Shown piece by piece: positions 4,265-47,671 of a stretch of DNA of 64,000 bases. The stretch is taken from positions 13,051 to 77,050 of the forward strand of contig JBBTSX010000005.1 of assembly GCA_038064535.1 (NCBI GenBank), written 5' to 3'. Positions within the stretch are counted from its first letter, which is position 1; every line of letters starts with the position of its first letter. The translations under genes and the position numbers were made by a program. This DNA comes from Patescibacteria group bacterium. GTDB taxonomy: Bacteria; Patescibacteriota; Minisyncoccia; Phycocordibacterales; UBA2100. The notes beneath the pieces were generated by a model. That model saw nothing but the letters and a program-made list of their open reading frames with translations. It was not told the origin of the DNA and searched no databases.

Positions 4265-5086
4265 GTGCGCGTACTGCAACAAATATTCCGGTCCCCGCTG
4301 GGTGTAACTGCCGCACTTTCCGTGGTGCTCTTGCTCGGCGTCTCGGTCTCCCAGATTTCCTCACTCATGCATCAGAACCGACAGGTGCTCGCATTTGTCG
4401 CCATACCGGCGGCACAGACAGCCGCGGCCGATGGTGCCGACTGGCAACAGGAAATGACATTACTCGGACTGAATACGGAAAACAATCCAGCAGCGACTTC
4501 GACGACCGACAGTATCGCAATGATCGGCCATATTGTAATCGCCGAGATGGTGGGGCAATACGCCGGCCTGCAGGATAGGGGAACGTACACCACGGAGACC
4601 GGACAAAACGCGTCCGCTGACATCGCCGCGAATCTCCGCGCGAACATTTTGTACAAAACATACTCGACGACCGACTTCAAAACAGACACGGACGTTTCCT
4701 ACGACCGCATGCTTACGTACCGGAGTGATTTGCGCGCGGCGCTCGCGCCGCTGTTACAAAACACCGGCGCGGAATTGGAACTGTACGGCAAATATATCGA
4801 AACCGCGGACACGAAGTATCTCGGCCAACTCTCCTCTGCGGCGGCAAATTACCGCGCGGCCGCGGAAGGCGCGGCCGCGCTCACCATCCCGCGCGACGCG
4901 GTAAATTATCACAAAGATATTCTGAACGCGATGGAGAAATTCTCCGCGACGCTTGACCAGATGGCGACGCATGCCGCGGACCCGCTCGCCTCCGCCGCGC
5001 TCTTGCGTACGTTCAACCAAGCCGAAACGGACATGTACACTTCGTTCAACGCGCTTTCCAATTATTACGGCCAGAAGACACCATGA
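4265..5086 (+). CDS. hypothetical secreted/membrane-anchored protein
   Basis: 273-aa ORF with an N-terminal hydrophobic segment. Stop TGA overlaps the ATG of the next palindromic element (ATGA). Confidence 0.5.
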   Translation: MRVLQQIFRSPLGVTAALSVVLLLGVSVSQISSLMHQNRQVLAFVAIPAAQTAAADGADWQQEMTLLGLNTENNPAATSTTDSIAMIGHIVIAEMVGQYAGLQDRGTYTTETGQNASADIAANLRANILYKTYSTTDFKTDTDVSYDRMLTYRSDLRAALAPLLQNTGAELELYGKYIETADTKYLGQLSSAAANYRAAAEGAAALTIPRDAVNYHKDILNAMEKFSATLDQMATHAADPLASAALLRTFNQAETDMYTSFNALSNYYGQKTP

Positions 5087-5220
5087 GCCCCGTTAGAAGT
5101 CAGAACCAGATACGCAATACCCCCGTACGACCCACGGGAGATACTGTAATGCAACATGGAGAGCAGCGGACAAAAAATAATTTACGGAATTATTTTTTGC
5201 CAATGACTTCTAACGGGGTG
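5087..5220. repeat. palindromic intergenic element, copy 3 (GCCCCGTTAGAAGT ... ACTTCTAACGGGGTG) between the 4265 and 5203 genes
   Basis: Arms exact over 13 nt; inner nested palindrome AAAAAATAATT-TACGG-AATTATTTTTT. Confidence 0.8.
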
Positions 5221-11319: not shown

Positions 11320-13239
11320 ATGGCATTCAGCGACCTTCTTCCGTTCAAGAAAAAAACCGCCGCAGGACCGGATATTTTGCCGGTACTACCCGAAGAAATC
11401 TACCAGACGGGGGTACTCGACCTGCAAGACGTCATCGCGCCGCACGCGCTCAAAGTAAACTCGCGCGAACTCGACTTGGGCGAGAAAATCGCGCGCACCT
11501 TCTTCGTCATCTCATACCCCAGATTCCTCACGACGGGATGGTTTGCCCCCATCATCAACATGGACAAGGTCATCGACATCTCCATCTTCGTACACCCGAT
11601 GGATACCAATGAAATGCTCCGTAAATTCCAGAAAAAAGTCGCCGAGGTGCAGAGCCAGATTTCGACACGCGAGCAGAAGGGGATGGTCCGCGACCCGATG
11701 CTCGACACGGCGTACTCCGACCTCGAACAGTTGCGCGACAGCCTTCAACAGGCGCAGGAGCGCATTTTTGACGTCGGACTCTATCTCACCATCTACGGCA
11801 ACACGCGCGAGGAAATCGACAAAGTGGAGAGCGATGTACGTTCCATTCTCGAGTCGCGTCTCGTGTACATCCGACCCGCGCTCTTCCAGCAGGAACAGGG
11901 CTTCCGCTCCGTCCTGCCGCTGTGCACCGACGAGCTCGACGTGCACACGAAGCTCAATTCCGCGCCGCTCTCGTCCATCTTTCCGTTCATCTCGTTCGAC
12001 CTCACGTCGGACCGCGGCATTCTCTACGGCATCAACCGTCACAATTCGTCTCTGATTCTCTTCGACCGTTTCTCGCTCGAAAACTATAACTCCGTGACAT
12101 TCGCAAAATCCGGCGCCGGCAAAAGCTACACGACAAAACTCGAGATTTTGCGCTCTCTCATGTTTGATACCGAGGTCATCGTCATCGACCCCGAGCGCGA
12201 ATACGAATACCTCGCCGAGACCGTCGGCGGGCGCTACTTCAACATTTCGCTTTCCTCCGAGCACCACATTAATCCTTTCGACCTCGCCATTCCGCGCGAA
12301 GATGAAAATCCGAGCGACGTGCTACGCAACAACATCATCACGCTCGTGGGGCTCTTCCGCATCATGCTCGGCGGGCTCACGCCGGAGGAAGACGCTGTTA
12401 TCGACAAGGCGATAACGGAAACCTACGCGCTCAAAGACATCACCTCGGATACCAACTTCGCGCAGGTCGAGCCGCCGCTTCTCTCCGACTTCGAGCTTGT
12501 ACTCTCCGGCATGGAAGGGAGCGAATCTCTCGTGCAACGTCTCTCCAAATACACCAAGGGCACGTGGTCGGGATTCATGAACCGCCCGACCAATGTTGAC
12601 ATGAACAAAAAACTCGTCGTCTTCTCGGTGCGCGACATGGAAGACGACCTCAAGCCGGTCGCGATGTACATCATTACGCACCACATCTGGAATCAGGTGC
12701 GCAAAGAGCTCCGCAAGCGCCTCCTCGTCATCGACGAGGCGTGGTGGATGATGCGTAGCGAAGACACCGCGTCGTTCCTCTTCTCCATCGCAAAGCGCGG
12801 CCGCAAATACTACCTCGGCATTTCGACCATCACGCAGGACGTCTCGGACTTCTTGAATTCCCCGTACGGTATCCCGATGATAACCAACTCTTCCATCCAG
12901 CTTCTTTTGCGTCAGTCACCGACATCGGTCGACCTTGTGCAGAGCACGTTCAAACTCTCCGACGAGGAGAAATACCTACTGCTCGAGAGTGACGTGGGGG
13001 AGGGCATATTCTTCGCCGGTCTCAAGCACGTCGCGCTCAAGGTCATCGCCTCGTATACCGAAGACCAAATCATCACCTCGGACCCGTCGCAAATTCTCGC
13101 AATCAAAAAAGCGAAGCAGGATCTCGAAAAATCGAGTGATGTCCCTGCGCCGGTGCGCCCCATCGCTCCTCACGCGCCGGGTACCGACACCGCGCCCGCG
13201 CCGCAAGCTCCTTCAAGCAACGCCTTACGGGAGGTATGA
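11320..13239 (+). CDS. virB4: type IV secretion ATPase VirB4/TraC/PrgJ-like
   Basis: Walker A AKSGAGKSYTT. Gram-positive VirB4 N-domain pattern KIARTFFVISYPRFLTTGWFAPIINMDKVIDISIFVHP. Walker B-like LLVIDEAWWMM. Confidence 0.85.
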   Translation: MAFSDLLPFKKKTAAGPDILPVLPEEIYQTGVLDLQDVIAPHALKVNSRELDLGEKIARTFFVISYPRFLTTGWFAPIINMDKVIDISIFVHPMDTNEMLRKFQKKVAEVQSQISTREQKGMVRDPMLDTAYSDLEQLRDSLQQAQERIFDVGLYLTIYGNTREEIDKVESDVRSILESRLVYIRPALFQQEQGFRSVLPLCTDELDVHTKLNSAPLSSIFPFISFDLTSDRGILYGINRHNSSLILFDRFSLENYNSVTFAKSGAGKSYTTKLEILRSLMFDTEVIVIDPEREYEYLAETVGGRYFNISLSSEHHINPFDLAIPREDENPSDVLRNNIITLVGLFRIMLGGLTPEEDAVIDKAITETYALKDITSDTNFAQVEPPLLSDFELVLSGMEGSESLVQRLSKYTKGTWSGFMNRPTNVDMNKKLVVFSVRDMEDDLKPVAMYIITHHIWNQVRKELRKRLLVIDEAWWMMRSEDTASFLFSIAKRGRKYYLGISTITQDVSDFLNSPYGIPMITNSSIQLLLRQSPTSVDLVQSTFKLSDEEKYLLLESDVGEGIFFAGLKHVALKVIASYTEDQIITSDPSQILAIKKAKQDLEKSSDVPAPVRPIAPHAPGTDTAPAPQAPSSNALREV

Positions 13240-18049: not shown

Positions 18050-19399
18050 ATGACGACAAACAGAGAATTATGGCAAAATGCGCTCGTTCAGATCGAATTG
18101 GGAACATCGCAGGCATCGTTCCGCACGTGGTTCAGGAACACCGACATCGCCTCGCGCGATACGGGCACCGTCCAGGTGGCTGTCCCGTCAAAAATCGTGA
18201 AAGAATGGCTCATGGAGAAGCACCACAAGCTCATACTGAAGGCGCTCCGCGGTCTCGACAACACCGTACGAACCGTTGAGTACGTCGTGCACCGCACACC
18301 ACCTTCGGCAGAGCGTAAGGTGCCGCGTCCTCAGCCGGCGGAAAATGCTTCATTCGATCTTCAGTCTCTTTATATAGACAAGCGCGACAATTTAAACCCG
18401 AGGTATACGTTCGAAACCTTCGTCGTGGGTCCGTTCAACCAACTCGCGCACGCAGCGGCAAAGGCCGTGCTCGAACGACCGGGTCTTGCATACAATCCGC
18501 TTTTCATCTATGGGCAAACCGGCCACGGTAAGACGCACCTCATCCAAGCGGTAGGGAACTATTTCAAAAAATCGCACGCAAACAAAAAAGTGCTGTATGT
18601 TACCTCGGAGCGGTTTGCCGTTGATTACATTAATTCGGTGCGCGCGGGTCGCGCCAACAGCTTCAAAGACCAGTACCGGCAGTACGACGTACTCATCATG
18701 GACGACGTGCAGTTCATCGCCAACACGGAAAAGACACAGGAGGAATTGTTTCACCTGTTCAACGCGCTTCACGACAACAACAAGCAAATCGTGTTCTCCA
18801 GCGACAAGCACCCGACACTGCTCCCCGGATTTGAAGACCGGCTCAAAGGGCGCTTCTCGGCCGGCATGATAGCGGAGATACCGGAGCCGGACGTGGAGTC
18901 GAGAATTGCCATAATTAAAGCCAAGATAGAGCAACACGGCTTCTCGCTTCCCGACGACATCATCCAGTACATCGCCGAGAACGTGCGCGGCAACATCCGC
19001 GAGCTTGAGGGTGCACTCAATATGATTGTCTGCAAGTCACAGCTCAAAGGCAAGGCGATATCGCACGCCGACGTGCGCGCGCTCATCAAACACAACGTGA
19101 AGCCAAACAGGGGTGTCTCCGTTGACGAAGTGGTACGGAGAATCGCGCAGTACTACGAGATACCGGAGAAGAGCATCTACGAGAAGACCCGTAAGAAGGA
19201 GGTGGTGAAACCGCGCCAGATTATTATGTACATGTTGCGCGAAGAATTCAGTGTCTCGTACCCCTCGATAGGGGAGAAGCTCGGTGGACGCGACCACACG
19301 ACGGTCATTCACTCGTGTGAAAAAATAAAAGAGGAGTTGAAAATGAACAATTCGCTTGAGCAGGAGATCGACCACATCCGCACACTCATTCACGCATAA
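18050..19399 (+). CDS. dnaA: chromosomal replication initiator protein DnaA
   Basis: AAA+ Walker A GQTGHGKTHL. Box VII and C-terminal DNA-binding helix GGRDHTTVIHSCEKI. Confidence 0.95.
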   Translation: MTTNRELWQNALVQIELGTSQASFRTWFRNTDIASRDTGTVQVAVPSKIVKEWLMEKHHKLILKALRGLDNTVRTVEYVVHRTPPSAERKVPRPQPAENASFDLQSLYIDKRDNLNPRYTFETFVVGPFNQLAHAAAKAVLERPGLAYNPLFIYGQTGHGKTHLIQAVGNYFKKSHANKKVLYVTSERFAVDYINSVRAGRANSFKDQYRQYDVLIMDDVQFIANTEKTQEELFHLFNALHDNNKQIVFSSDKHPTLLPGFEDRLKGRFSAGMIAEIPEPDVESRIAIIKAKIEQHGFSLPDDIIQYIAENVRGNIRELEGALNMIVCKSQLKGKAISHADVRALIKHNVKPNRGVSVDEVVRRIAQYYEIPEKSIYEKTRKKEVVKPRQIIMYMLREEFSVSYPSIGEKLGGRDHTTVIHSCEKIKEELKMNNSLEQEIDHIRTLIHA

Positions 19400-19638
19400 T
19401 GTCGCCGATAACCCTGTGGACAAACCCTGCGTAGAGCACTCACAACACACCGAACAACATCATGATAACTTCACCAAACAGTATCCGGAGTGAGTTGTCC
19501 CCGTTCTCTGCACATTTCGCACATCAGTTCTCAACAGTTCAAAATATCCAAACCACCTAATCAAACATTCACTTTAATTCACTTCTCCACATTATCCCCA
19601 GTACTAATAGAAGTAATAGTATTTAAATAAGAAAAGGT
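19400..19638. promoter_or_regulatory. oriC-like region between dnaA and dnaN: degenerate DnaA boxes (TGTGGACAA, TTATCCCCA, ATATCCAAA) and an AT-rich unwinding-element-like stretch at 19600-19640
   Basis: One-mismatch DnaA boxes plus TAATAGAAGTAATAGTATTTAAATAAGAAAAGG immediately before dnaN. Confidence 0.5.
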
Positions 19639-20736
19639 ATGAAGATAATAACAACAAAAGAAAAAATTCTAAACACCATTCTTATGGCAGAGAGAGTTAC
19701 GGGAAAAAAAGAGTCTCTTCCTGTTCTTGCTTGCATTTTCGTTGAAGCCGCAAAAGATATTACCCTCCGCGCGACGAATCTCGAGGCAGGCTTCGAATCA
19801 GTGGTGCCGGGAGAAGTTGGTGAAGTGGGGGCCGTTGCGGTACCGGCCGCCATCCTTTCACAAACGATACGCTCAATCGGCAGTGACAAGGTCGCCTTTT
19901 CTACCGATGATTCGAATCTCCTCGTGGAGTCACGGGGGACCAAAACACTCATAAAAGCGATACCACACGACGAGTTTCCTGCGTTACCGAAAAGCGCCGG
20001 GAAGAATAAAATTTCTCTTTCACGCGAGCGACTTATACACGGGATACAGGCGGTTTGCTACGCCGCTTCACCATCAATGATTCGTCCCGATCTTGGCTCT
20101 GTATACCTTTCGATCAAGGACGGTGCGATGGTATGTGTCGCGACCGACTCGTTCCGTTTGGCCGAGAAAACAGTGAGTGAAAGCGGTGCCAAGGCCGAGG
20201 GCGACGTGCTTATCCCCTTGAAGCACGCGCTCGAGCTTGTGCATATTCTCGAACACGCCGGTGACGACTCGGTGTCGCTCTCCGCCGAAGAATCACAGCT
20301 ATCGGTTTCGGCCGGGGGCATGCGTTACGTGTCCCGCGTGGTGGATGCGACGTTCCCGAACTACAAAGAAATTATTCCGAAAAAATTTACGACCGAGGCG
20401 ACGGTACTCAAAGGCGACCTCGTTGAAATGTTACGCAAGGCGCGTGTGTTTGCGGGGAACGACATGCACGTGGGTCTCCACATTTATCCGAAGAAGAAAA
20501 TATTTTCCGCGCTCGCACGCAGCTCCGATGTGGGAGAAATGTCCGACTCAATCGATGCGGCGCTCTCCGGCGAGGACCTCGACATCAATTTCCATATCGG
20601 CTACATCGCCGACTGTCTCTCATCCGTAGAATCCGATTCCGTGACACTCGGTTTTGCCGGTGCCGGTAAACCACTCGTCATCCGCGGCGTCTCCGATTCC
20701 TCTTTTCTCTATCTCGTCATGCCGCTGAACCGGTAA
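19639..20736 (+). CDS. dnaN: DNA polymerase III beta sliding clamp
   Basis: 365 aa directly after dnaA; clamp-like three-domain length. Confidence 0.9.
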   Translation: MKIITTKEKILNTILMAERVTGKKESLPVLACIFVEAAKDITLRATNLEAGFESVVPGEVGEVGAVAVPAAILSQTIRSIGSDKVAFSTDDSNLLVESRGTKTLIKAIPHDEFPALPKSAGKNKISLSRERLIHGIQAVCYAASPSMIRPDLGSVYLSIKDGAMVCVATDSFRLAEKTVSESGAKAEGDVLIPLKHALELVHILEHAGDDSVSLSAEESQLSVSAGGMRYVSRVVDATFPNYKEIIPKKFTTEATVLKGDLVEMLRKARVFAGNDMHVGLHIYPKKKIFSALARSSDVGEMSDSIDAALSGEDLDINFHIGYIADCLSSVESDSVTLGFAGAGKPLVIRGVSDSSFLYLVMPLNR

Positions 20737-28021: not shown

Positions 28022-28050
28022 AAAAGCCTCCCGCAAGGGAGGCTTTTCGT
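28022..28050. terminator. intrinsic terminator hairpin AAAAAGCCTCCCGCAAGGGAGGCTTTTCG
   Basis: Stem-loop with flanking A and T runs in a gene-free stretch. Confidence 0.6.
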
Positions 28051-28162
28051 ACCGTGCGTACGTGCACCTATTGTACGCGCTCAATTTTCAATATTTCCTC
28101 TTATCCACAAAAAGAATCACGGCCGCCTCTGTTGAGGCGGCCGTTCAATTGGTGTCCCGACC

Positions 28163-28909
28163 CTACATTTTCTTTGGGTCGAATTCGAACAGCATGCACA
28201 CTTTCAGTATTTTTGTCTTGAATGGCGTCACCAAAGGGTTTGTGAGCTCCTTATGCACACGGGCTACGGCGATGCAGACGGTGTTATGCGCCTTTCTGAG
28301 ATACCGCGCGACAAGGCCTTGGTAACTTGACTCGACGACCATATGGTAGAGGACAGCGATAACGATATAGCGTGCCTGAGAGGCCTCAGGAGTCGGGCTT
28401 GGTCCCAGCACGTCGTCACGCGTTGCATCTCCGAGACACAAGAGAGTTTTCGCAATAAACTCTTCGCCCTGCTCTTTTAGTTTTGCTTCAAGTTGCGCTT
28501 TTCGTTTCGCGCCCAGCTCACCCGTACTCGGCTTCTTCGGCGCACCATCCGCATTGACGGCGGCGAGCAGTTTTTTCAACTGGTCCATCTCGTTGGCGTT
28601 TCCGAGCGTGTCGATATGGTGCACCATATGCGCCATGAGCCTTAGAAGGTCGCCAGTGTGAATGCGCAGCAGTCTGGCCGTTGGTGTCGGGTCGAGACCC
28701 ACGCGCCTCCGTATGGCGTAGGCAAGCGTGCCGACCAAGCTATTCTTCGGTGCCCGTCCCAATATCCTGGGAATTTCTTCTGCAGTGCATCCGTGGACGC
28801 TGCACCACACGTTGAGAAGCCGCTGTGCACGAACTTCTTTACTGTCCGGCACGGCGGCCACAGGTTCGTGCGCGTCTTGAAGCGCGAGCTCACTCATGAT
28901 GGGCTCCAT
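28163..28909 (-). CDS. hypothetical protein with two DnaA-C-terminal-like helix-turn-helix repeats
   Basis: Segments LAYAIRRRVGLDPTPTARLLRIHTGDLL and LVARYLRKAHNTVCIAVARVHKEL resemble the DnaA domain IV helix. Confidence 0.4.
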   Translation of the reverse strand: MEPIMSELALQDAHEPVAAVPDSKEVRAQRLLNVWCSVHGCTAEEIPRILGRAPKNSLVGTLAYAIRRRVGLDPTPTARLLRIHTGDLLRLMAHMVHHIDTLGNANEMDQLKKLLAAVNADGAPKKPSTGELGAKRKAQLEAKLKEQGEEFIAKTLLCLGDATRDDVLGPSPTPEASQARYIVIAVLYHMVVESSYQGLVARYLRKAHNTVCIAVARVHKELTNPLVTPFKTKILKVCMLFEFDPKKM

Positions 28910-29048
28910 TGTTTCGTTCAAACCTCTTGCGCTATGGTATGTCGGGCACGCCACCACCGCAAGACTTAGAGCAATGGTTTTTGTGTTGCGGGCGAGTCAG
29001 CGCCGAGGTGCTCGTAGGATTTCTTTGTCGCGGACGCGCGGAGCGCGT

Positions 29049-29435
29049 TTACTGCACAGCCTCGGGTGTCTTCAGGGAGTTCATATAGAGAACGGTCGCG
29101 GCGGGTGTGAGCGCGACGACCGCGTACTCTATCCACACATACGACGTGAGGAATGCGGCGAAGCCGGCGGCAGGGACGACATAGACGGCGTCGAGCGCCA
29201 TATGTAGTATCGCCCACCCGAGTCCCGCGAGGATTGCGAATTGTAGAGAACCAATCGGGAACATGCGCGTCGCAATTGTCATTGCGAGCGCGGTCACCGC
29301 GTAGCTCACAATCTGCGCACCCAAGCCGTAGCTCATACCGTATGCTGCGAGCAATGACCACAACATGAAGATGGTGGCGTAGGTCAGGAAGCCGTACAAT
29401 AGAAAGCGAGTATAAGGAAAACCCTGCATATGCAA
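29049..29435 (-). CDS. small polytopic membrane protein, paralog A (partner of the divergent HExxH secreted protein)
   Basis: 128 aa, about 4 TM helices. Clear paralog of 31702..32103 (YATIFMLWSL..AQIVSYAVTALAM vs YATVFMLWSL..AQLASYAVTALMT). Confidence 0.55.
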   Translation of the reverse strand: MHMQGFPYTRFLLYGFLTYATIFMLWSLLAAYGMSYGLGAQIVSYAVTALAMTIATRMFPIGSLQFAILAGLGWAILHMALDAVYVVPAAGFAAFLTSYVWIEYAVVALTPAATVLYMNSLKTPEAVQ

Positions 29436-29459
29436 ATTCTACCATCCAATCAGTAGCAT

Positions 29460-31709
29460 ATGTCATTTCAAGAAGCTTCACGTTGGGTACTTGTCGCCGT
29501 TTTCCTTGTGGCGGGACAGTGGGCGTTCTCTTTTCCCGTCCGGCAACAGCAGGCCGCATTTCTGGCGCAAGCGGCGACTCCGGTGGTTTGTCAGAGTAAG
29601 ACAAAGGCGCCAAGTGTTGAAGAAGAGTGCAGGCCGGGTTGCGAGTACTTCGTGCGGCCGAGCTACTCCAAGCAGGGGTCCGTGGATGTCATCGCATCCG
29701 TCTCGGACCCCACGGGCAAACTGCCCGGCATCGTGAAGTACAAAGACGGCAAAGGCACCGTCATCATGCTGTGCAACGGGACGGTGGGAAAGTCGCTCGA
29801 CAATCACGCGGGAGTTCTACAGTCGGGAGCACCTCTTCAGCCACAGGGACAGGAAATCACGACACTTCTAACGGGAGTGCCAACCCCCGCATCCGGTTAT
29901 TCCGGAGTCAGCGAGGCCTTTTCGGTCTCGGGTGGATATACGCCGACTCCGCTTGAGCACCGCGAATCAGTTCCGAGTGATTTCTTCGGCGCAGGGTCTT
30001 CGGGCTCGCTCGGAGCCGCGCCCAACCCCGCCGTGAGTTTCGACGGCTATCTCGGGGGGAACTACTGCCTCGGGCAGTTTTGTCCTGTAGAAGGAGAGGG
30101 CGTGCAACGGAATTTTGATGCGCTACCGAATGACGGAAACCCGAATACGAACCCTTTCGGAAACATCGCGGAAATGAACTCCGCTCGCGTTCCGCAAAAT
30201 GTCGGCATAGAGAACGCGCTAATCGCGGACAGGGCGCGTCTGAACATGTCCACAGACGTGCGGATGAATTCCGCCGTAGAGCAGTGGAGCGGTTTCGAGC
30301 GGAGTGGACAATTGGATCGGCCACAGTATGAGGGCGTCGATGGTGAGCGCACGGTCGCTCAGTCAATCAATGCGGCCGTCCGCGACTATGCGCAACAGGA
30401 TGTCGGCTACGCCGTAGCGCAGGTGACCGGAGAAACCGCCGCGGGCGAGCCGGGTGTGTTAGTTTCGTACACGAAGGACGGAGTGCTCGCGCGCGACCCG
30501 TACGACGGCTCGCTTCTGTTCGCTCACACCAAAGAGCAATTGCCGGTTCTCTACACGGCAGAGGGTGAGGCGGTGCCGACGTCGAATCAGTCCGGAGAGT
30601 GGTTGGGGGTGATGAAGGAGAGGATTCAGACTCCGGCGGAGTTGCGGGAATTTGAGAGGGCATATACCGGAACCTATTCGGCGGTATTTACGCCCGCCGA
30701 TATCAAGGTTCCCGGATTGAACCTCAATATGTTACCGGATGATGTGAGGAACAGACTCGATAGTTATGCGAGATGGGACGGCAACGGTCCGGAGTCGATG
30801 GGCGCATCAAACGATGTGATTATACGCAGCTTGAGCGGAGAGGAGAAGTTACGAATATCAGATGACGTATTTCGGGCTATCCAAACACACGAGAACGAGG
30901 TTTACGGCATCGACGCGACCGCGAGTCGTATCGAGCGCGACACGCAAGGGAAAATGAATCTCAACATCTCCGGCCTTCCGCAAGAGACAAGTGCCGGGGG
31001 CGCGCTTGCTCCAGCGTACGCGCTCGTGCCACTGCCCGGCGAGTTACGGGCGTGGACGGCAAGCGCTATTGAAACCGAACTGGGCAAATACCCGCCGGAG
31101 TATTGGGAGAATGCGAACAAGGGTGCCCTATACGACTTTATGCCGCGCCCTGATATGCAGGGTGTTGTGCGGGAGGGCGGACATGCGACCGCTCCCGGGG
31201 ATCCCAAGGCGCATATGTATATCAATGGCTTGAATAGCGCCGCCGGTATTGCAGTAATCCTTAATCACGAACTCTCCCACTACAACGATAACAAGACTTT
31301 TGTGTCGGACAGCACATTCGGAACTGTAGTATACGGGTCATCGTACGGAATGTCGTATGCGGGCTCCAGCGGGTACGAAGCCATCACGTCGGGGAAGTTT
31401 GACATAGGACGACCCGATGGGTTCGCGGACAGTTACGGCTACCGCGGCGGCGTGCAGGAAGACAAAGCGAGCATCGTGGAAGCGATGTTCACCAATTATT
31501 CTGTCGTTCGAGAAGCGATGCTGACGGACCCGATTCTCGCCCAGAAGGTACAGATTCTCCAAAGCGGATTTGAAAAAAGCACGAACGGCGTCATGAATGA
31601 GGCCTACTGGCAGAATCTAAAACCGATTGACCCGTGGTACCGCCTGTCTCCCGCGGTGTCGAGACCGAATTTCTTCCGGACATTGCTATCGAAACTTTGG
31701 TTCAAATAG
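29460..31709 (+). CDS. large secreted protein with HExxH motif (putative zincin-like metallopeptidase), paralog A
   Basis: Signal peptide. HELSH motif, then a conserved Y.GG..E.KA block shared with the 32118 ORF. Confidence 0.6.
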   Translation: MSFQEASRWVLVAVFLVAGQWAFSFPVRQQQAAFLAQAATPVVCQSKTKAPSVEEECRPGCEYFVRPSYSKQGSVDVIASVSDPTGKLPGIVKYKDGKGTVIMLCNGTVGKSLDNHAGVLQSGAPLQPQGQEITTLLTGVPTPASGYSGVSEAFSVSGGYTPTPLEHRESVPSDFFGAGSSGSLGAAPNPAVSFDGYLGGNYCLGQFCPVEGEGVQRNFDALPNDGNPNTNPFGNIAEMNSARVPQNVGIENALIADRARLNMSTDVRMNSAVEQWSGFERSGQLDRPQYEGVDGERTVAQSINAAVRDYAQQDVGYAVAQVTGETAAGEPGVLVSYTKDGVLARDPYDGSLLFAHTKEQLPVLYTAEGEAVPTSNQSGEWLGVMKERIQTPAELREFERAYTGTYSAVFTPADIKVPGLNLNMLPDDVRNRLDSYARWDGNGPESMGASNDVIIRSLSGEEKLRISDDVFRAIQTHENEVYGIDATASRIERDTQGKMNLNISGLPQETSAGGALAPAYALVPLPGELRAWTASAIETELGKYPPEYWENANKGALYDFMPRPDMQGVVREGGHATAPGDPKAHMYINGLNSAAGIAVILNHELSHYNDNKTFVSDSTFGTVVYGSSYGMSYAGSSGYEAITSGKFDIGRPDGFADSYGYRGGVQEDKASIVEAMFTNYSVVREAMLTDPILAQKVQILQSGFEKSTNGVMNEAYWQNLKPIDPWYRLSPAVSRPNFFRTLLSKLWFK

Positions 31710-32103
31710 TATTCTGCTGAGTGCCGGCGGCTCCTCTTTGCACGAGCATGCCCGCTATCGCCGCCACGATTATAGGTATAAGGAGAATGACACCGTAGCT
31801 GATGAGATTGAATGATGTGCCCAATGACTCTATTCCGGCAACGGGGACGACGAGCACAACGTCGAGCGCGATATATATGAGAGCCCAGATAGCGCCGTAC
31901 ACCCATGCGTTTGCATTTGTCGCGTCGACAAATCTCGTCGCGAAGAATGTCATGAGCGCGGTTACCGCGTAGCTCGCGAGTTGTGCCTGTATCCCGTACA
32001 CAAAATCGTACGTCGTCATCAGAGACCACAACATAAACACCGTCGCGTAGATGAAAAATCCGGCAGCTGTTAAATATCGGTAGTTGACCTGCATACCATC
32101 CAA
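31702..32103 (-). CDS. small polytopic membrane protein, paralog B
   Basis: 133 aa; paralog of 29049..29435; divergent from the 32118 gene. Confidence 0.55.
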   Translation of the reverse strand: MDGMQVNYRYLTAAGFFIYATVFMLWSLMTTYDFVYGIQAQLASYAVTALMTFFATRFVDATNANAWVYGAIWALIYIALDVVLVVPVAGIESLGTSFNLISYGVILLIPIIVAAIAGMLVQRGAAGTQQNTI

Positions 32104-32117
32104 TATACCATTGCCTC

Positions 32118-34478
32118 ATGAAGCGCAATGCGAATGGAAGAACATCCGCTTTTGTTCTAGTCGCCGTCGCGTTGTCTCTCGGCACGGGGGCGACCCTCTT
32201 TGTTGGCGAGGCATCACGACTCTCCGGATTCGACGGACTCCAGCTGGTCGCACAGGCGGCCGCATCCGCGGAACCCTCGAGTACGATTACGAAGGATGTT
32301 TTGAAGCACCCGTGTGAGAGCGGATATCTCTACGAAATCCTTACCGCACCGGCGGGCTCCAAGGAACCGTTCTCAATAAAAAAGTCGCCGAATCCAAACG
32401 ATCCCGAAAAACGGTGGTCCGGAGTCGTGAAATTCAGGAAACCGGCGAGAACCGCGGGAGGGAAAGCGACAATTACGACCATGTCGTGTTCCGGCGGAGC
32501 CGCCGCGTCCATGCTCACGCTGATGAAAGAAACTTCATCTTACGGAGGCGGGGTGGCGTTGTCCTATACCGATTTTGCCGTCAACACGCCGCTCGACCCG
32601 CGGAATACCGACCAGCTGACCTCCGCGTTTACGCCTCCGGCCAACAACACGAATACGGCGGTCGCGCCCGCCGGCAATCTCGACAAGACTCCGCCCGTCG
32701 TGGGGGAGATGCCGGCGGGCGCGACCGCACCTCCGGCAAATCGTGAACTGTATGAAGAAAACAATCAGGGCACAATCGCTCCTCCCGCAAAGAATTCCTC
32801 CGGACGGACGTCATCCGAGTGTCCTACGTGCGGAGTCGAGTTAAGAAGTTCACCGAGTTCCCCCGCCGCGCCCCCGGCCGGTTCGCCCACTCCGGAATAT
32901 ATAACCAATCTCAATAACCGCGTTTCGAGTGTCGCGACCGCCGCTCTCGAGAAACATCCGGACGTGGCGGCATTTGGCGGTGCGGATGTCGTCAAGGCGT
33001 GCGTCGCCGCACAAAATTGCGATGAGGTGGTACCGAAGACGAAGGGAATTGAATCGTTCTTCAAGACAGAAAACGACGCCAACGAAAAATATTCAAAAAT
33101 CGTATCGGATACCACGTATGCGGCAATCAAGGCGCAACCCGGGCTCGGTTCTGTCGACCGCCCGAATCAGGAAATTGCGCGGGCGTTGAGCATGATAAAT
33201 CTGGAGAGCGGTAGCTCGTGGCGCGGCGGGAGCAATGAGAACTGGGGACGAACCACGTTTAATCTGAACGACGCGGATAACCCGGCGTTCATGTGGACCG
33301 ACAAGATGCAAGCTACGAACAGAACCCCCTCCGACATTGTCGTGTACAAAGGCGACGGTTCCAGTGTGAGCGTGCGGGCGAACGGCGAGCTGGTAAACCC
33401 GGGCGGATTCGTCTCACAGGTGGAGGACAGGATTACTACGGAGAAGACGTACAATGAGTTTTTCTCGGCGATGGTCGGGGCCAACAAATCCGCCGCCGAT
33501 AAGGCCAACTTCACGTTGGAAGATTCTTCGCTCCCTGCCGGCGAGAGGACCGTAAAGGTGGTGAACGATACCCGCGTTCAGTTGGCGACTCTCCCGGAGA
33601 AGGCCTATGGGGCACTGCAGGGGTGGGGCGATAGGGTATACGAAAACAACTTCCAGGACGAAATAAAGAAGGCGACGGAGGGCAAACTGTCGTTTGTTCC
33701 ATCTGGCGCCTTTCCCAAAGACGTCAATATTGACTTCAGGTTTGCGCCCGCGGGGGCCCTCTCGCCACTGACGCCGGACCAGCGGTATGAAAAACAGGAA
33801 GCATTACTGGCGGCGGTCCAACGGTATACGCCGGAGTATTGGGCAAACCTTCGCGAACCCGCAATACTCGCCGATTTCGGTACGATTCCCGGTAATGCAC
33901 AGGTCAAAGCGGGGGCATATACGGGTCTCGGGACCGGCAACATGCGCATGTGGATCAACGGTAACTACCCGACGGACTGGCTGAATGCTTCCTTTGATCA
34001 CGAGACTCTGCATCTCGTGGAAGGACCGAGCGGAAGCCGTTTCTATCCGTCGGACAGGGAGTGGGGAACAACAATGTTTGGTGAACAGTACGGAAGAGTG
34101 TACACAGCGGAGTCGGGGGTGGACTCCATGGCCGCGGGAGGGACGACGGGTTCCTCCGACTGTTCGCAGTTCAACCGGCCGGAGGGGTTCCCCACATGCT
34201 ACGCCTATAAGGGCGGTCCGACCGAGCATAAGGCGGACATGCAAAAATTTGTGATGGGCAATTATGCGCTTGCCCAGCAGGAGGCCCAGAGGAATCCGAC
34301 CTTCAAAAAGGCTTTCGATCTCATGGTGCAAAGTCTCTACAAGGCGTCGAACGGCACGATGACCGTCGAGTACCTGGCGTCTCTTCCCCCGACGCTTCCT
34401 GCCTCGGAGCTCAGACCGGTTAATATTCCGCTGACCATGAGGATCGACATGATTCTCAGGTCGCTCGGTCGCCGGTAG
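32118..34478 (+). CDS. large secreted protein with HExxH motif (putative zincin-like metallopeptidase), paralog B
   Basis: Signal peptide, HETLH motif, C-terminal block homologous to the 29460 ORF. Confidence 0.6.
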   Translation: MKRNANGRTSAFVLVAVALSLGTGATLFVGEASRLSGFDGLQLVAQAAASAEPSSTITKDVLKHPCESGYLYEILTAPAGSKEPFSIKKSPNPNDPEKRWSGVVKFRKPARTAGGKATITTMSCSGGAAASMLTLMKETSSYGGGVALSYTDFAVNTPLDPRNTDQLTSAFTPPANNTNTAVAPAGNLDKTPPVVGEMPAGATAPPANRELYEENNQGTIAPPAKNSSGRTSSECPTCGVELRSSPSSPAAPPAGSPTPEYITNLNNRVSSVATAALEKHPDVAAFGGADVVKACVAAQNCDEVVPKTKGIESFFKTENDANEKYSKIVSDTTYAAIKAQPGLGSVDRPNQEIARALSMINLESGSSWRGGSNENWGRTTFNLNDADNPAFMWTDKMQATNRTPSDIVVYKGDGSSVSVRANGELVNPGGFVSQVEDRITTEKTYNEFFSAMVGANKSAADKANFTLEDSSLPAGERTVKVVNDTRVQLATLPEKAYGALQGWGDRVYENNFQDEIKKATEGKLSFVPSGAFPKDVNIDFRFAPAGALSPLTPDQRYEKQEALLAAVQRYTPEYWANLREPAILADFGTIPGNAQVKAGAYTGLGTGNMRMWINGNYPTDWLNASFDHETLHLVEGPSGSRFYPSDREWGTTMFGEQYGRVYTAESGVDSMAAGGTTGSSDCSQFNRPEGFPTCYAYKGGPTEHKADMQKFVMGNYALAQQEAQRNPTFKKAFDLMVQSLYKASNGTMTVEYLASLPPTLPASELRPVNIPLTMRIDMILRSLGRR

Positions 34479-34503
34479 CTGTTGAGAGATAAGGAACATT
34501 GAT

Positions 34504-37056
34504 ATGCAAACGATCCGTCAACCATTCTCCTCGCGCGGTATGATACTCAACATGACCCGCTCGCAGGCAGTCGGAGGGCTGCTCGTATTCGTAGCGATGT
34601 TCATGTTTGCCGGCGTTACCGACGCAGCCACGACCCCGCCCGACAACTCCAACACCTGTCCTGCATTCGGTAAGACGGGCAAAGGTGCGGAGAAACGCCC
34701 GTGCCGTCCGGGGAGCACGCACAAGGTGGCGTTCGGTGTCGGAGGAAAATATACGCCCGCGGTGGGTGTGAAATCGAGATGTCTCAGCGCAGAACAGGAG
34801 GCACAGTACATCAAGGAACACGGAGCGAGATGTACTGTGGAGTACTGCACACCGGCTCAAGACGGCAAAGAGAAGTGCACAAAGAAAACAGTCAAGATTG
34901 ACCTCAACAAACCGGACCCATACGGCGGAGTCTCCCCGTTCTCGCAACAAGCACAGGCCGACAGCACGCGGTTGGCCGCATACTCGGCGATGAACGATAC
35001 GGCCGCCGCGTACCGCGCGGGCGATACGGCAAAGGTTCAGGAGATTGCAAATCAGACAAAGGCCAATCCCGAGGTCAGCGCCCTCATCAACAGCGCGTTT
35101 TCAAACATCAAAACTACCACTGCGGGAGGTGCCCCCGTCGCTCTCAGCGACCAGGACAAACTCAACGCCGTTATTGCGAGTCTCGACCCGGAGCAGCCCA
35201 CCGTTGCTCAACAGCCCAAAAAAGACGTGGTGACTCCAAAGAGTGAAACCATTGCAGTCGACGTGACATTCGAAAAGCCCCCAAAAGAAACCGCAAACAT
35301 TCCGTGTCCCGCCGGTACACCCTGTGATGCGCCGGCGAAGACCACGGGTCCCGCATCCACCTTCCAGCCCGCCACTGAAGCGAACAAGAAAACGACGACA
35401 CAACCGGCTCAGCAAACGTCGTGGTGGAACACGGCCACCAACAAAGTGAGCGACTATCTTCCCGCTTCCGTGAACCGCTGGCTTGGTCTCGCCAATGCTC
35501 CGACGTTCCGGCCGTACGACCCCCAGACCGACGTGCCGCTTCTGGTGAAGGAAAGCGACTCGGCGTCTTTGAAAGACAAACCACATCTGGACCCATTCGA
35601 CACTGGGAGTCCCATTGTGCTCATGAACAAAGATGTAAGTGTCAGCGGTGGCGAAACTGCATTGCAAGCGATGACAAAGAGACAATCACAAGCTGTGCAG
35701 ACTGCGGACTTTGACCCGGACACGCCGGTCCCTTCCGGCGGCATTGTGGTCACGCCGCTTAGTGCAAACGGCACACCCGATATTGCCGCGTCAAAGGTGA
35801 TGGAAGTGGGAACGTGGAGAGATTTCCTCAACGAGGTGGGGAGCAACCGTGACTACGAGAAAACAGTTATATCGGTGAATATACCGGCTTCGGAGAAGAA
35901 GGCGGAGGCTCCCGCGGGGGTGGACGTCGTGACGACACCGTTCAATGATTTGCCGGCATCAGTGAAGGAAGTGTTTAAGAAACAAGATGAATTAAACAAA
36001 AGTACGATAGTGCCGCCGAGAGTGGCGGATAACCCGCCGCCGCCCGGTAAAGAAATACCGGTAACAGAAGCCGCCCCAGCGGGAAATCCGCAGGATAAAG
36101 ATGAGCCGGTGCCGCCGGCTCAACAACCGCCCACGCCAACCGTTGAACAACCAACGCCACCCACGCCCACGCCGCTTCCTCCCGTCCCCCCGGAGGTGTC
36201 CACGGAAGAACCTACTCCTCCGAAAGAACCGCCAAAGACCGAAGAGCCGAAGCCGGTGGAAGAAAAACCGGTTCAGCCGCCTATACCTATCCTCTCGTCG
36301 CCGACAAAATTAGCGGAATCCGTGCCCACGCCACTACCCGAACCGGAGCTGAAGGACAAACTCCCCACAACCGAAGAGCCGAAGAAAGAAAAACTCCCTA
36401 CGTCCGAACCGGCCGTTCAACCGACGCCGGAAACGCCTGACGACTGCAAGGGTAATATCGACTGCAGGCTCAATGCCCTCAAACAATGGGTGAAGGATTT
36501 GGATAGCCCAAAAGAGCCTCCGAAAGAATCTTCAGTGACCGCCCCGCCATCAGCATCGTCGCTAAACGACATTTTCAATCCATATCCCAAGCGACTTTTC
36601 GGCGAGTCCAATGAAGACTTTGACAAGAGGGTTGACGCATGGAGAGAGCGCTCGAACAGTCAGTCGTTAGAGAGTTTTATAAACAGCCGTGGCGGCCGAG
36701 TGGGTCAATGCGAAAGCTGTCACAATCCCCAGATGGGTGGCGGTGCCGGTCCGCAGACAGACTATGACGGTGTCGGAATCAGAATACAGTACGAAAGAAA
36801 AGAATTTGACGGGAAGGTTTCCCCCGGGGGAATGGTTCTCAGTGTATTCCCTAATACTCCGGCGGAGCGGGCGGGACTGCGGGCGGGCGACTTCTTGTTG
36901 AGTCTTGATAGAGGACGTACGTCTATGATCTCCGGATTTAGGGGGACCCCCGGCACGGCAATCGAAGTCAGGTATATACCGCAGGGCTCGACGGTACAGA
37001 GGACCATAACGGTTAAACGGGCAACCATCCAATGCAGTATCTACGGTTGCCCCTAA
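34504..37056 (+). CDS. large secreted Pro/Lys-rich protein with a C-terminal PDZ domain
   Basis: Signal peptide. Long PT/PE/PK low-complexity region. C-terminal GMVLSVFPNTPAERAGLRAGDFLLSLD PDZ-like segment. Confidence 0.6.
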   Translation: MQTIRQPFSSRGMILNMTRSQAVGGLLVFVAMFMFAGVTDAATTPPDNSNTCPAFGKTGKGAEKRPCRPGSTHKVAFGVGGKYTPAVGVKSRCLSAEQEAQYIKEHGARCTVEYCTPAQDGKEKCTKKTVKIDLNKPDPYGGVSPFSQQAQADSTRLAAYSAMNDTAAAYRAGDTAKVQEIANQTKANPEVSALINSAFSNIKTTTAGGAPVALSDQDKLNAVIASLDPEQPTVAQQPKKDVVTPKSETIAVDVTFEKPPKETANIPCPAGTPCDAPAKTTGPASTFQPATEANKKTTTQPAQQTSWWNTATNKVSDYLPASVNRWLGLANAPTFRPYDPQTDVPLLVKESDSASLKDKPHLDPFDTGSPIVLMNKDVSVSGGETALQAMTKRQSQAVQTADFDPDTPVPSGGIVVTPLSANGTPDIAASKVMEVGTWRDFLNEVGSNRDYEKTVISVNIPASEKKAEAPAGVDVVTTPFNDLPASVKEVFKKQDELNKSTIVPPRVADNPPPPGKEIPVTEAAPAGNPQDKDEPVPPAQQPPTPTVEQPTPPTPTPLPPVPPEVSTEEPTPPKEPPKTEEPKPVEEKPVQPPIPILSSPTKLAESVPTPLPEPELKDKLPTTEEPKKEKLPTSEPAVQPTPETPDDCKGNIDCRLNALKQWVKDLDSPKEPPKESSVTAPPSASSLNDIFNPYPKRLFGESNEDFDKRVDAWRERSNSQSLESFINSRGGRVGQCESCHNPQMGGGAGPQTDYDGVGIRIQYERKEFDGKVSPGGMVLSVFPNTPAERAGLRAGDFLLSLDRGRTSMISGFRGTPGTAIEVRYIPQGSTVQRTITVKRATIQCSIYGCP

Positions 37057-45946: not shown

Positions 45947-47671
45947 GTGCTACTATTTAGTGACATGAGTACGGTGCACAAAGTTGCTCTAGGCACATTT
46001 CTCGTTTTTGGTTTCGCGCTAACGGCATTTGCCCTCCTGCCGGTCTCGGTCACTGCGCAAAATCTCGGCAGTCCCGAGGACATCCGCTGCGTGAAAGAGT
46101 GCGCGGTCGCCGCGTCGAAGAAAAAACCGTGTCCCACGCCCACGAAAATTGTGTGTCATGTTACGGTAAACGGCGGCACTTCTTTCGGGTTTTGCATGCC
46201 CAACGGCTGCAAGGCAACGGGCTATGGTGGCGGCGGGGGAGGTTCGGGCAACGTCGGACTCGACTTGATCAAGCAGGTTCTCGGCAGTCTGATGCAAAAA
46301 CTCATGCAAGGGGGTCAGGGAAGTGGAAGCGGCAGTGGAAGCGGTTCGGGTTCGGGCGGCACCCCCATAAACACGACTCAGCCGACCTGCTCGCTTACGT
46401 CCACGACAGACTCTACCGACGCCTCAAGTACAAAAGCGACACTATCGTGGACATCTTCATATGATGTGACAAGCGCAACAATCAGTCCGGACATTGGTTC
46501 TGTCTCGCCGAATGGTTCCCAACAGGTTACCGTCACAAGTGCCCTCGGCATCTACAGTATGACGGTGACGGGGCCCGGCGGAACGGGGGCATGCTACAAA
46601 ACCATTTCCGGTCCCGGCGGCGGAGGTGAGTGCGATGCCGTCAGTCAGGCGCTGGGTCTGTGCGGAGGAGGTGGTGGAGGTGCGGACACTACGACGGGGG
46701 ATTTGAGTGTCGAAACCTCGACGGGCGAAGTGCCGTTCCAGGCGGTGTTCTCGGTATCCGCCGGTGCATGCCGAACGGCCGATCTGTTGCTCAACTACGG
46801 CGACGGAAGTTCTCCCGTGACGGTGTTTGTGGCGAATGAGACAACCATGCCCGGCACGTGCACGGGCGACTCCATTTCCGCTTCGCCGGAGCACGCGTAT
46901 CACAATCCCGGCTCGTACACGGCAGAGCTCACTAATTCCGTAAGCCGCGCTTCGGTATCGTCGGTCAACATCACGGCGACTACTCCCGCCAATTCCTCAA
47001 ATAACAACAATGGAAGAACGATTACATCTACACCGAGCAGCACTCTACCGGTCATCGTGCCGCAGGGCGTGATACAAGGACTTACGTCGGGTGTGAGCGG
47101 CGATATCCGGATACTCGGAAACAGCGGGACGATTCTCGCGGGTTCGGTGGACCCGGGAGGCAACAGTGTCACTGCCGGTTTCTTCGGCTCCAACACCTTC
47201 ACCGGCCAGCCGACCGGAGTCATCGCTAATCTTTGCAAGAGCCGTCCGTGGGCGGGCAATATCCTCTCGTACATCCTTCCGGCGACATTCTTTGACAGCC
47301 TGTGCGTGCTGCGCGGCTATCAGGTGGGTACGCCGAAGCCGGCCGCCCCGACCGTCACCGTATTCCAAAGTGCACCCAAAAAAGTGACGAAGACACCCGT
47401 CGCGACGACGACACCCGCCGTCCCACCGAAAGTCGATATCTGGGCGGTGCCCTCTTCCGTGCCCTTGGGCTCGCGCACGTCGGTATTCTGGAGTTCGCAG
47501 GGCGTGACGAACTGCACCGAAACATCACCCGACGGTAGCTTCTCGCAGAACACGCTCTCCGGCGGCGCTTCTACGGTCGCTCTCACCGGCGCGACGACGT
47601 TTACGATGTCCTGCATCGCTCCCGACGGCTCACACGTGACGGACTACGTGACGGTGAACCTCTCGATCTAG
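45947..47671 (+). CDS. secreted Cys-containing protein with Gly/Ser run, family member 2 (tandem paralog)
   Basis: GLDLIKQVLGSLMQKLMQGG then (GS)n. C-terminal LCKSRPWAGNILSYILPATFFDSLCVLRGYQVG... matches the previous gene. Confidence 0.6.
   Translation: MLLFSDMSTVHKVALGTFLVFGFALTAFALLPVSVTAQNLGSPEDIRCVKECAVAASKKKPCPTPTKIVCHVTVNGGTSFGFCMPNGCKATGYGGGGGGSGNVGLDLIKQVLGSLMQKLMQGGQGSGSGSGSGSGSGGTPINTTQPTCSLTSTTDSTDASSTKATLSWTSSYDVTSATISPDIGSVSPNGSQQVTVTSALGIYSMTVTGPGGTGACYKTISGPGGGGECDAVSQALGLCGGGGGGADTTTGDLSVETSTGEVPFQAVFSVSAGACRTADLLLNYGDGSSPVTVFVANETTMPGTCTGDSISASPEHAYHNPGSYTAELTNSVSRASVSSVNITATTPANSSNNNNGRTITSTPSSTLPVIVPQGVIQGLTSGVSGDIRILGNSGTILAGSVDPGGNSVTAGFFGSNTFTGQPTGVIANLCKSRPWAGNILSYILPATFFDSLCVLRGYQVGTPKPAAPTVTVFQSAPKKVTKTPVATTTPAVPPKVDIWAVPSSVPLGSRTSVFWSSQGVTNCTETSPDGSFSQNTLSGGASTVALTGATTFTMSCIAPDGSHVTDYVTVNLSI

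Follow-up and report, generated by a model that had tools for sequence, protein, structure and literature searches.

The closest described relatives of the large proteins analyzed here are the Peptidase_Mx1 proteins of Bacteroidota (PF15890, with PDB entries 4L7A and 9URD), lipoproteins of ~270–330 aa that are linked to SusC/SusD-type importers. A second related group, the LIC13305 lipoprotein of Leptospira (NF047804), consists of a short lipoprotein without a known partner gene. A literature search on Peptidase_Mx1, PF15890, LIC13305, 4L7A, and 9URD found nothing functional. The order of active-site residues is also familiar from M34-type gluzincins (anthrax lethal factor, Certhrax, and the Pro-Pro endopeptidases), which are soluble toxins or secreted peptidases lacking a membrane partner; in lethal factor and the Pro-Pro endopeptidases, the HExxH motif is followed by a Tyr, with the Glu ligand 7–8 residues past it. 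At the level of gene organization, a small membrane protein of three to four helices encoded on the opposite strand beside a large exported protein is familiar from pore-forming colicins and their immunity proteins, and polymorphic toxin systems display strain-level hypervariability of the kind described below.

The locus lies in a 64,000-nucleotide stretch of patescibacterial DNA (hereafter the window, to which all coordinates refer), in which an earlier note had described five open reading frames, all of which are present. A gene for a small membrane protein on the minus strand (sA, 29049–29435) stands head-to-head with a plus-strand gene for an exported protein of 749 aa (A, 29460–31709), followed by a second such pair (sB, 31702–32103, minus strand; B, 32118–34478, plus strand, 786 aa) and a third plus-strand gene for an exported protein of 850 aa (34504–37056). 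The proposal that the two pairs are duplicated, divergently arranged modules holds far above chance: A and B are 27% identical over 296 aligned positions of their C-terminal part (E = 6e-28), with a weaker N-terminal match (E = 6e-4), and sA and sB are 48% identical over 97 aa (E = 1e-24), in line with the 40–50% estimated by eye. A PEYW block, the HELSH/HETLH motifs, and a conserved C-terminal block were likewise found in both large proteins, as claimed. Judging from orthologs, which begin MQ... in the case of sA, translation of the small proteins most likely starts at ATG 29429 (sA, 126 aa) and ATG 32094 (sB, 130 aa) rather than at the upstream TTG codons, leaving 30 bp (29430–29459) and 23 bp (32095–32117) between the start codons at the sA/A and sB/B junctions, respectively.

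Each large protein has a single N-terminal hydrophobic segment (aa 9–28 in A), which in A is followed by an LAQA spacer, a small Cys-pair domain, a long variable middle region, and the C-terminal zincin-like domain (aa 521–749, 31020–31706, plus strand). The architecture of B is the same, apart from a different middle region, and its zincin-like domain comprises aa 547–786 (33756–34475, plus strand). A and B gave no match when scanned directly against Pfam (at E ≤ 1) and NCBIfam, and the N-terminal 520 residues of either protein contain no Pfam or NCBIfam domain. The N-terminal segment is conserved within subgroups only, with no anchor motif found family-wide, and thus gives no direct sign of a helix–helix interface with the small protein.

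An exhaustive search identified 129 relatives of the C-terminal domain, and HExxH is present in nearly all of those that cover the site (127 matches examined). Across an alignment of 43 diverse members (alignment A4), the two His and the Glu of this motif, together with a downstream Tyr and Glu, are the sole invariant residues. In A, these correspond to H603, E604, and H607 of HELSH (aa 603–607, 31266–31280), Y659 (31434–31436), and E667 (31458–31460), which are its predicted catalytic residues; in B, to HETLH (aa 628–632, 33999–34013), Tyr695 (34200–34202), and Glu703 (34224–34226), all on the plus strand. The invariant Glu of A lies 60 residues past the second His of HExxH and 8 residues past the invariant Tyr, making it a candidate for the third ligand of a predicted zinc site. 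Ten of the 43 family members match Peptidase_Mx1 (PF15890, best E = 6.5e-7), and the A4 profile aligns to PDB entries 4L7A (E = 9.7e-7) and 9URD ([quoted passage not shown] E = 4e-4) through the HHExxH, GF, and ED elements. NF047804 is matched by the homologs at loci L006 and L009 over ~170 residues of their catalytic regions (E = 4e-9 and 8e-8), at scores of 32–36 bits that lie far under the 250-bit cut-off. A and B themselves do not match NF047804 and fall below any Pfam or NCBIfam threshold, PF15890 included.

An alignment of nine sequences yielded an unusable AlphaFold model of the zincin domain of A (pLDDT 41), a problem that was resolved with the 43-sequence alignment (pLDDT 91.4). The resulting model displays a three-strand sheet, a helix carrying HExxH (residues 74–88), and the downstream Glu where a long helix (145–169) begins. 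Top-ranked Foldseek matches are mostly zincins (lethal factor/Certhrax, 3E11, PPEP-3, and IrrE), none of them significant; the M34-type proteins among them match at E values of 0.1–1.2 and TM scores of 0.36–0.40, and they share the order HExxH ... Tyr, Glu with A and B in the absence of any sequence-level relationship. The earlier suggestion that the HExxH proteins are metallopeptidase-like is supported by the invariant motif and downstream Glu, by the profile links, and by the modeled placement of both elements on helices. Together these lines support a gluzincin-type zinc metallopeptidase domain of ~230 aa, predicted to be catalytically active. By its profile relationships, the domain forms a deep, so far unannotated branch within the Peptidase_Mx1/LIC13305-lipoprotein group. 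It shares with the Bacteroidota proteins the core HHExxH ... GF..Y......ED.A and an extracytoplasmic location, but A and B are far longer, lack a lipobox, derive from monoderm-like CPR bacteria, and come with a dedicated four-helix membrane partner. Relatives of the domain range from ordinary lipoprotein and TAT-signal peptidase-like proteins to giant proteins of 2900–3300 aa.

Hydropathy analysis indicates four hydrophobic segments in each small protein, which is predicted to be almost wholly embedded in the membrane with only short loops and to adopt an N-in/C-in topology. Seven residues are invariant (W24, A53, W72, D80, P86, G89, and Y102), and conserved positions sit within helices or at helix ends, with an Asp...Pro..Gly motif predicted at the outer face of the membrane. 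This pattern, combined with purifying selection (dN/dS of 0.23–0.38 for sA), indicates that the small gene is real. The small protein has no Pfam or PDB relative, and NCBIfam scans of sA and sB gave no match. Members of the Lipocone/VanZ group use an active-site triad of His (H2), Glu (H3), and Asp (H4) (bioRxiv 10.1101/2025.01.14.632903); this identity was rejected, as the small protein conserves no His, its helix 4 is free of acidic residues, and VanZ gave no match at E ≤ 5. An MreD identity, for which the support is positional (locus L009), is not backed by sequence, with 0 of 16 members matching Pfam MreD at E ≤ 5. The small proteins form a new, previously undescribed membrane-protein family.

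As the earlier note had anticipated, the small membrane gene co-occurs with HExxH-bearing large genes in other genomes. Counting the two pairs in the window, at least 12 loci carry this gene and a large homolog in head-to-head orientation (also L001, the L002 family, L007, L006, L009, L016, L018, L020, L021, and L022), with 15–58 bp between the start codons, and the same pairing is seen on four short contigs (L011, L014, L015, and L017). These loci fall into four neighborhoods, namely yebC–ruvB, mreC–pbp2, cobalamin adenosyltransferase–L19, and cupredoxin/Zip; in one case (L009) the pair is placed inside an mreB–mreC–[pair]–pbp2 cluster, and otherwise it is found among housekeeping genes. In all loci examined, the small gene lies upstream of the large one and points away from it. 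No orphan small gene was seen among 18 family members and eight metagenome loci. Two large homologs, P0045 and P0058, stand without a small partner, and in P0045 the N-terminal segment is missing as well. The pairing also holds in distant relatives, for which the match drops to E = 4e-9 for the large protein and E = 6e-11 for the small one. Because it persists where both partners are barely recognizable, functional coupling of the two genes is strongly supported. As a conserved unit of two genes, the module occurs in some Patescibacteria (Kaiserbacteria-like genomes and relatives); a literature search combining Kaiserbacteria or Patescibacteria with zincin returned no description of this gene pair.

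Between near-identical strains, the locus varies sharply. The flank of the window is 99.7% identical in nucleotide sequence to that of L007, yet the sA proteins are 82% and the B proteins only 69% identical, and mosaic breakpoints are present at the locus. Such a nearly identical flank next to a 31% difference in B points to mosaic allele replacement, and the locus is a strain-level mosaic hotspot. The dN/dS values of 0.15–0.38 overall rule out gene-wide positive selection. The earlier description of the genes as "diversifying" therefore stands with respect to strain-level mosaicism and does not stand with respect to raised dN/dS.

Taken together, we consider it slightly more probable than not that the locus encodes a surface-displayed zinc peptidase with a dedicated intramembrane partner, in a two-gene unit that has been duplicated and exchanged between strains. 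The large protein would be extracytoplasmic, exported or anchored through its one N-terminal hydrophobic segment, after which a small Cys-pair domain and a long, fast-evolving stalk would lead to the gluzincin-type domain. Transcribed divergently from the shared 15–58 bp junction, the small gene would supply a dedicated partner within the membrane that may act on the peptidase at the cell surface by tethering, assembling, or gating it, and the complex would perform extracellular or cell-envelope proteolysis. The unit would have been duplicated before the divergence of the Kaiserbacteria-like genomes, and the B copy would have gained a PDZ-domain accessory protein; the locus is exchanged between strains as divergent alleles.

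The earlier note had suggested an effector with a cognate membrane immunity or maturation partner. In the toxin–immunity reading, the large protein would be a secreted metallopeptidase acting on other bacteria or a host, the small protein would protect the producer's own membrane target, and an arms race would lie behind the duplication and the exchange of alleles. The strict one-to-one pairing across lineages, the tandem duplication followed by divergence, and the hypervariability between strains, with its mosaic breakpoints, are what such a system could leave behind. An adjacent islet in relatives carries Fic/GIY-YIG or ImmA-like cargo, the domain recurs in the giant proteins, and pore-forming colicins have small immunity proteins of 3–4 TMs. 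However, the immunity gene of a pore-forming colicin is downstream and convergent, whereas the partner here is upstream and head-to-head; the colicin is a pore former, whereas the large protein here carries a peptidase domain, and no homology was detected. Polymorphic toxin systems, in turn, have a same-strand downstream immunity gene and an LXG, Rhs, WXG100, or PT-TG domain, and neither occurs at this locus, where Pfam detected none of the trafficking domains, LXG, Rhs, and WXG included. Orphan small genes were unseen, dN/dS is not in excess, the neighbors are housekeeping genes (once those of the mreB–mreC–pbp2 operon), and the domain relatives include ordinary peptidase-like proteins. Since the small protein would expose only short loops, it could not plug a soluble protease. 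Immunity as the function of the small protein fits the layout poorly, and we regard the reading as unlikely. A broader version merits the same low probability: a previously unrecognized surface system, specific to certain lineages of episymbiotic CPR bacteria, in which a strain-variable, membrane-tethered zinc peptidase and its obligate four-helix partner would recognize or attack the envelope of a host or competitor, with the partner conferring self-protection and whole alleles being swapped between strains under frequency-dependent selection.

Somewhat more doubtful still is a role in nutrient scavenging, in which a surface exo- or endopeptidase would feed an auxotrophic cell in the manner of the SusCD-associated metallohydrolases, the small protein being an anchor or unrelated. 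CPR bacteria are broadly auxotrophic, import-associated zinc metallohydrolase lipoproteins and Peptidase_Mx1 are the closest relatives with a structure or a name, and the extracytoplasmic architecture would suit such a function, but no transporter consistently adjoins the pair, and this reading leaves both the very strict four-helix pairing and the strain-level allele replacement unexplained. Improbable, finally, is a part in envelope morphogenesis, with the peptidase trimming peptidoglycan stem peptides or envelope proteins and the small protein, which resembles MreD in size and helix count, serving as an MreD-like membrane organizer and linking the peptidase to the elongation machinery: at L009 the pair does sit exactly between mreC and pbp2 (mrdA), the usual mreD site, with no other mreD-like gene near, and PBP1A lies ~6–7 kb away in the window and relatives, but a cell-wall link occurs in only one of at least four neighborhood types, the L009 small gene is on the strand opposite to the mre operon, the 16 small proteins lack any match to MreD, and strain hypervariability is unusual among core morphogenesis genes.

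The surface biology of Patescibacteria, which have tiny genomes, is mostly obscure, and a two-gene unit that is kept, duplicated, and exchanged between strains could well be central to their cell-surface lifestyle. Three results emerge from the analysis: a new deep branch of Peptidase_Mx1-like zincins, with 129 representatives; a new family of small membrane proteins, in which an Asp...Pro..Gly motif on the predicted outer face is invariant; and the genetic coupling of the two. Even if the function proved to be ordinary extracellular proteolysis, this would provide a useful annotation for many "hypothetical" CPR proteins.

The third gene, which may start at Met17 (34552) by comparison with orthologs, encodes a protein without homology to A or B. 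Its N-terminal part has a signal-like segment and a Cys-rich region, followed by a linker rich in Pro, Thr, Glu, and Lys and a C-terminal PDZ-like domain (aa ~752–844, ~36757–37035, plus strand). The linker is present as the earlier note described it, and the PDZ assignment is consistent though below threshold: PDZ_6 reaches 24.4 bits, short of its 27-bit cut-off (E = 2.5e-5), Pfam PDZ_2 and PDZ are likewise sub-threshold, TIGR00225 matches at E = 2.9e-6, and PDB matches are to the PDZ domains of DegP (E = 0.017), CtpB, and RseP. The gene is present beside B in L002–L005, L007, L008, and L016, is absent in L006, L009, and L018, and is not evident among the genes adjoining the pair in L021. The PDZ protein is an accessory of B-type modules only, outside the conserved unit.

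A scan for sigma-70 promoters and terminators gave no enrichment over shuffled sequences. The sB/B junction contains a promoter-like match, TTGACC-16-TACCAT, that ends 7 nt 5' of the ATG of B, and the two head-to-head junctions have an exact 10-mer in common, ACCATCCAAT (29441–29450 at sA/A and 32095–32104 at sB/B). Between the two modules, the 3' ends of sB and A overlap by 8 bp, an overlap that is kept in L002.

The five open reading frames described in the earlier note were all found at exactly the positions it gave. Two encode large exported HExxH proteins, A (29460-31709, plus strand; 749 aa) and B (32118-34478, plus strand; 786 aa), each preceded head-to-head by the gene for a small membrane protein, sA (29049-29435, minus strand) and sB (31702-32103, minus strand), while the fifth, 3' of B, encodes a PDZ protein (34504-37056, plus strand). 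The proposed paralogy of the two pairs also holds: the C-terminal ~300 residues of A and B align with 27% identity (E=6e-28) and their N-termini match more weakly (E=6e-4), and sA and sB align over 97 residues with 48% identity (E=1e-24). A and B have one N-terminal hydrophobic segment apiece; sA and sB have four, connected by very short loops. Judging from orthologs, sA starts at ATG 29429 and sB at ATG 32094, which would place the divergent start codons merely 30 bp (sA/A) and 23 bp (sB/B) apart. The 3' ends of A and sB overlap convergently by 8 bp (31702-31709), an arrangement kept in the related locus L002 and its relatives; the window belongs to a Patescibacteria MAG whose relatives are Kaiserbacteria-like.

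Neither A nor B has a direct match in Pfam or NCBIfam, and a word-indexed search returned close orthologs only. An exhaustive HMMER search with a family alignment (E<=1e-3) gathered 129 cluster representatives, which have the C-terminal ~200-230 residues in common, with HExxH seen in nearly all matches covering the site. Across 43 diverse aligned domains, just five residues are invariant: both His and the Glu of HExxH, a Tyr, and a Glu that lies 60 residues further downstream. The motifs RPxGF and ED.A are nearly invariant. All five invariant residues are kept in A (H603, E604, H607, Y659, and E667) and in B (H628, E629, H632, Y695, and E703). Pfam Peptidase_Mx1 (PF15890) is matched by 10 of the 43 members (best E=6.5e-7), and the family profile matches two solved structures in the PDB through HHExxH, GF, and ED: 4L7A (E=1e-6) and, at E=4e-4, 9URD, which is named [quoted passage not shown]. 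The more distant orthologs at loci L006 and L009 match the Leptospira LIC13305 lipoprotein family with a score below the cut-off. The HExxH...Y-x7-E spacing resembles that of M34-type gluzincins.

Structure prediction, which the earlier note had suggested as a check, was applied to the C-terminal part of A. The AlphaFold2 model of A 521-749, built from the 43-sequence alignment, is confident (pLDDT 91.4, pTM 0.89) and shows the HExxH helix, a sheet of three strands, and a long helix starting at the invariant Glu. Foldseek found no significant match to it in the PDB (best E=0.11); zincins make up most of the top-ranked hits (lethal factor/Certhrax, 3E11, PPEP-3, IrrE/PprI, and snapalysin). From sequence and model together, we conclude that the C-terminal domain of A and B is a predicted gluzincin-type metallopeptidase on a deep, unannotated branch near Peptidase_Mx1.

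The N-termini of A and B (encoded at 29460-29780 and 32118-32520) have the layout common to partnered homologs: a basic tail, one hydrophobic segment, and, 10-15 residues on, an LAQA-like spacer that could be a processing site; next comes a domain of ~60 aa in which a Cys pair is conserved (C..G.EY ... PG.V.Y ... C). Many family members of ~300 aa carry twin-arginine-like signals (RRxFLK). In three giant proteins of 2900-3300 aa (P0050, P0055, and P0056), one of them named "predicted metalloprotease" by one source, the zincin domain is internal, at about residues 2100-2600.

The small-protein family has 18 members by word-indexed search, all from Patescibacteria, and no Pfam or PDB relative was found, even at lenient thresholds. 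Its invariant residues are W24, A53, W72, D80, P86, G89, and Y102. The positive-inside rule suggests an N-in/C-in topology, which would bring the LD...VP.AG motif to the outer face of the membrane. Membership in the Lipocone/VanZ superfamily was ruled out because the defining His/Glu/Asp triad is absent.

Co-occurrence of the two genes in other genomes, which the earlier note had proposed as a check, was observed wherever the flanking sequence suffices, with the small gene and a large homolog always in head-to-head orientation. Two such pairs are present in the window, in the L002/L003/L004/L005/L008/L012 group, and in L007/L010; the incomplete locus L001 has at least one; L006, L009, L016, L018, L020, L021, and L022 have single pairs; and on four contigs of 1-3 kb the large gene of the pair is represented by its N-terminus. 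L023 plausibly carries a pair as well (hhalign probability 50%). Two large homologs, P0045 and P0058, have no small partner, and P0045 also lacks the N-terminal hydrophobic segment. The neighborhood is yebC...ruvB in the window, L006, and L018, mreB-mreC-[pair]-pbp2 in L009, cobalamin adenosyltransferase...L19 around P0042, and cupredoxin/Zip in L021, where the pair is retained near the detection limit of both partners (large, E=4e-9; small, E=6e-11). That the pairing has survived such rearrangement of the surrounding genes is strong evidence that the small and large genes are functionally coupled. In L009 (2418-8627), from a different Patescibacteria MAG, the pair occupies the usual mreD position between mreC and pbp2 (mrdA), and no other mreD-like gene adjoins it.

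The paralogs had been thought to be diversifying, but dN/dS (NG86) is 0.15-0.38 in all five genes versus 0.03 for ruvB and yebC, with no gene-wide positive selection; selection is relaxed but purifying. Comparison with L007 reveals a different kind of variation. The left flank is 99.7% identical over 3.2 kb, where both yebC and the HD gene have dS=0; ~28.05-29.06 kb is unalignable because the two strains carry different cargo genes there. Nucleotide identity is 93.5% across sA-A-sB and 72-77% in B (69% at the protein level); for the PDZ gene, identity is 88%. Resolved to 100 nt, identity reaches 98-100% in the middle of A. The strains diverge again inside sA, whose 3' part shows 57-91% identity, and over the stretch that begins just 5' of A's HExxH and runs on into sB and B, at 72-89%. 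This pattern, spanning 29000-36200 with breakpoints near 29300-29400 and 31200, is mosaic allele replacement at a strain-level hotspot. The stretch from the yebC side to sA (28050-29060) is an islet of variable gene content, holding in the window a minus-strand ORF (28163-28957) for a 264-aa hypothetical protein with a weak DnaA_C-like HTH, in L007 Fic and GIY-YIG genes, in L001 an M78/ImmA-like peptidase, and in L002 an unrelated 170-aa ORF.

We favor, with somewhat better than even confidence, the reading that the large protein of each module is a zinc peptidase displayed on the cell surface and that the small protein is its dedicated partner within the membrane; literature searches returned no description of the large-protein family or the pairing. 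The earlier note's observation is confirmed, and its interpretation is supported in part. A toxin (the large protein) with its immunity protein (the small one) seems unlikely: the hypervariability of the locus and the strict pairing would fit it, but gene order, the housekeeping context, the near absence of loops in the small protein, and the absence of trafficking domains and of orphan small genes all speak against it. A role in nutrient scavenging, suggested by how the nearest relatives are annotated, is slightly less probable still. Involvement in cell-wall morphogenesis, for which a single locus is the basis, is the most doubtful of these.

The PDZ protein shows no relationship to A or B. 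Its N-terminus is signal-like, and a Pro-rich linker precedes the C-terminal PDZ domain reported earlier, which is sub-threshold yet consistently detected. Its gene lies 3' of B in every locus with two pairs and also in L016, whose sole pair is B-type; the A-like single-pair loci L006, L009, and L018 lack it. The PDZ protein is hence a lineage-specific accessory of the B-type module. Within 34504-34552, translation probably starts at Met17 (34552), as the L002 ortholog starts at the equivalent MTR... and the 16 codons upstream are not conserved.

The exact 10-mer ACCATCCAAT occurs three times in the window versus ~0.1 expected. Two copies (29441-29450 and 32095-32104) sit at equivalent positions of both junctions, the short gaps between divergent start codons, just upstream of the A and B ATGs, and the third (37024-37033) falls where the PDZ gene ends. 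The 10-mer may represent a regulatory element that has been retained. The L006 and L021 junctions carry TACCA[CT]-like elements; a generic promoter scan was uninformative. Elsewhere in the window (5083-9392, 11320-13239, 18050-20736, 45947-47671, and 56339-58984), several large ORFs (588, 885, 574, and 881 aa) lack any Pfam domain, and a TraG/VirB4-like P-loop ATPase is encoded at 11320-13239. dnaA, closely followed by a probable dnaN, precedes the locus by ~9-10 kb, which places the region near the replication origin.
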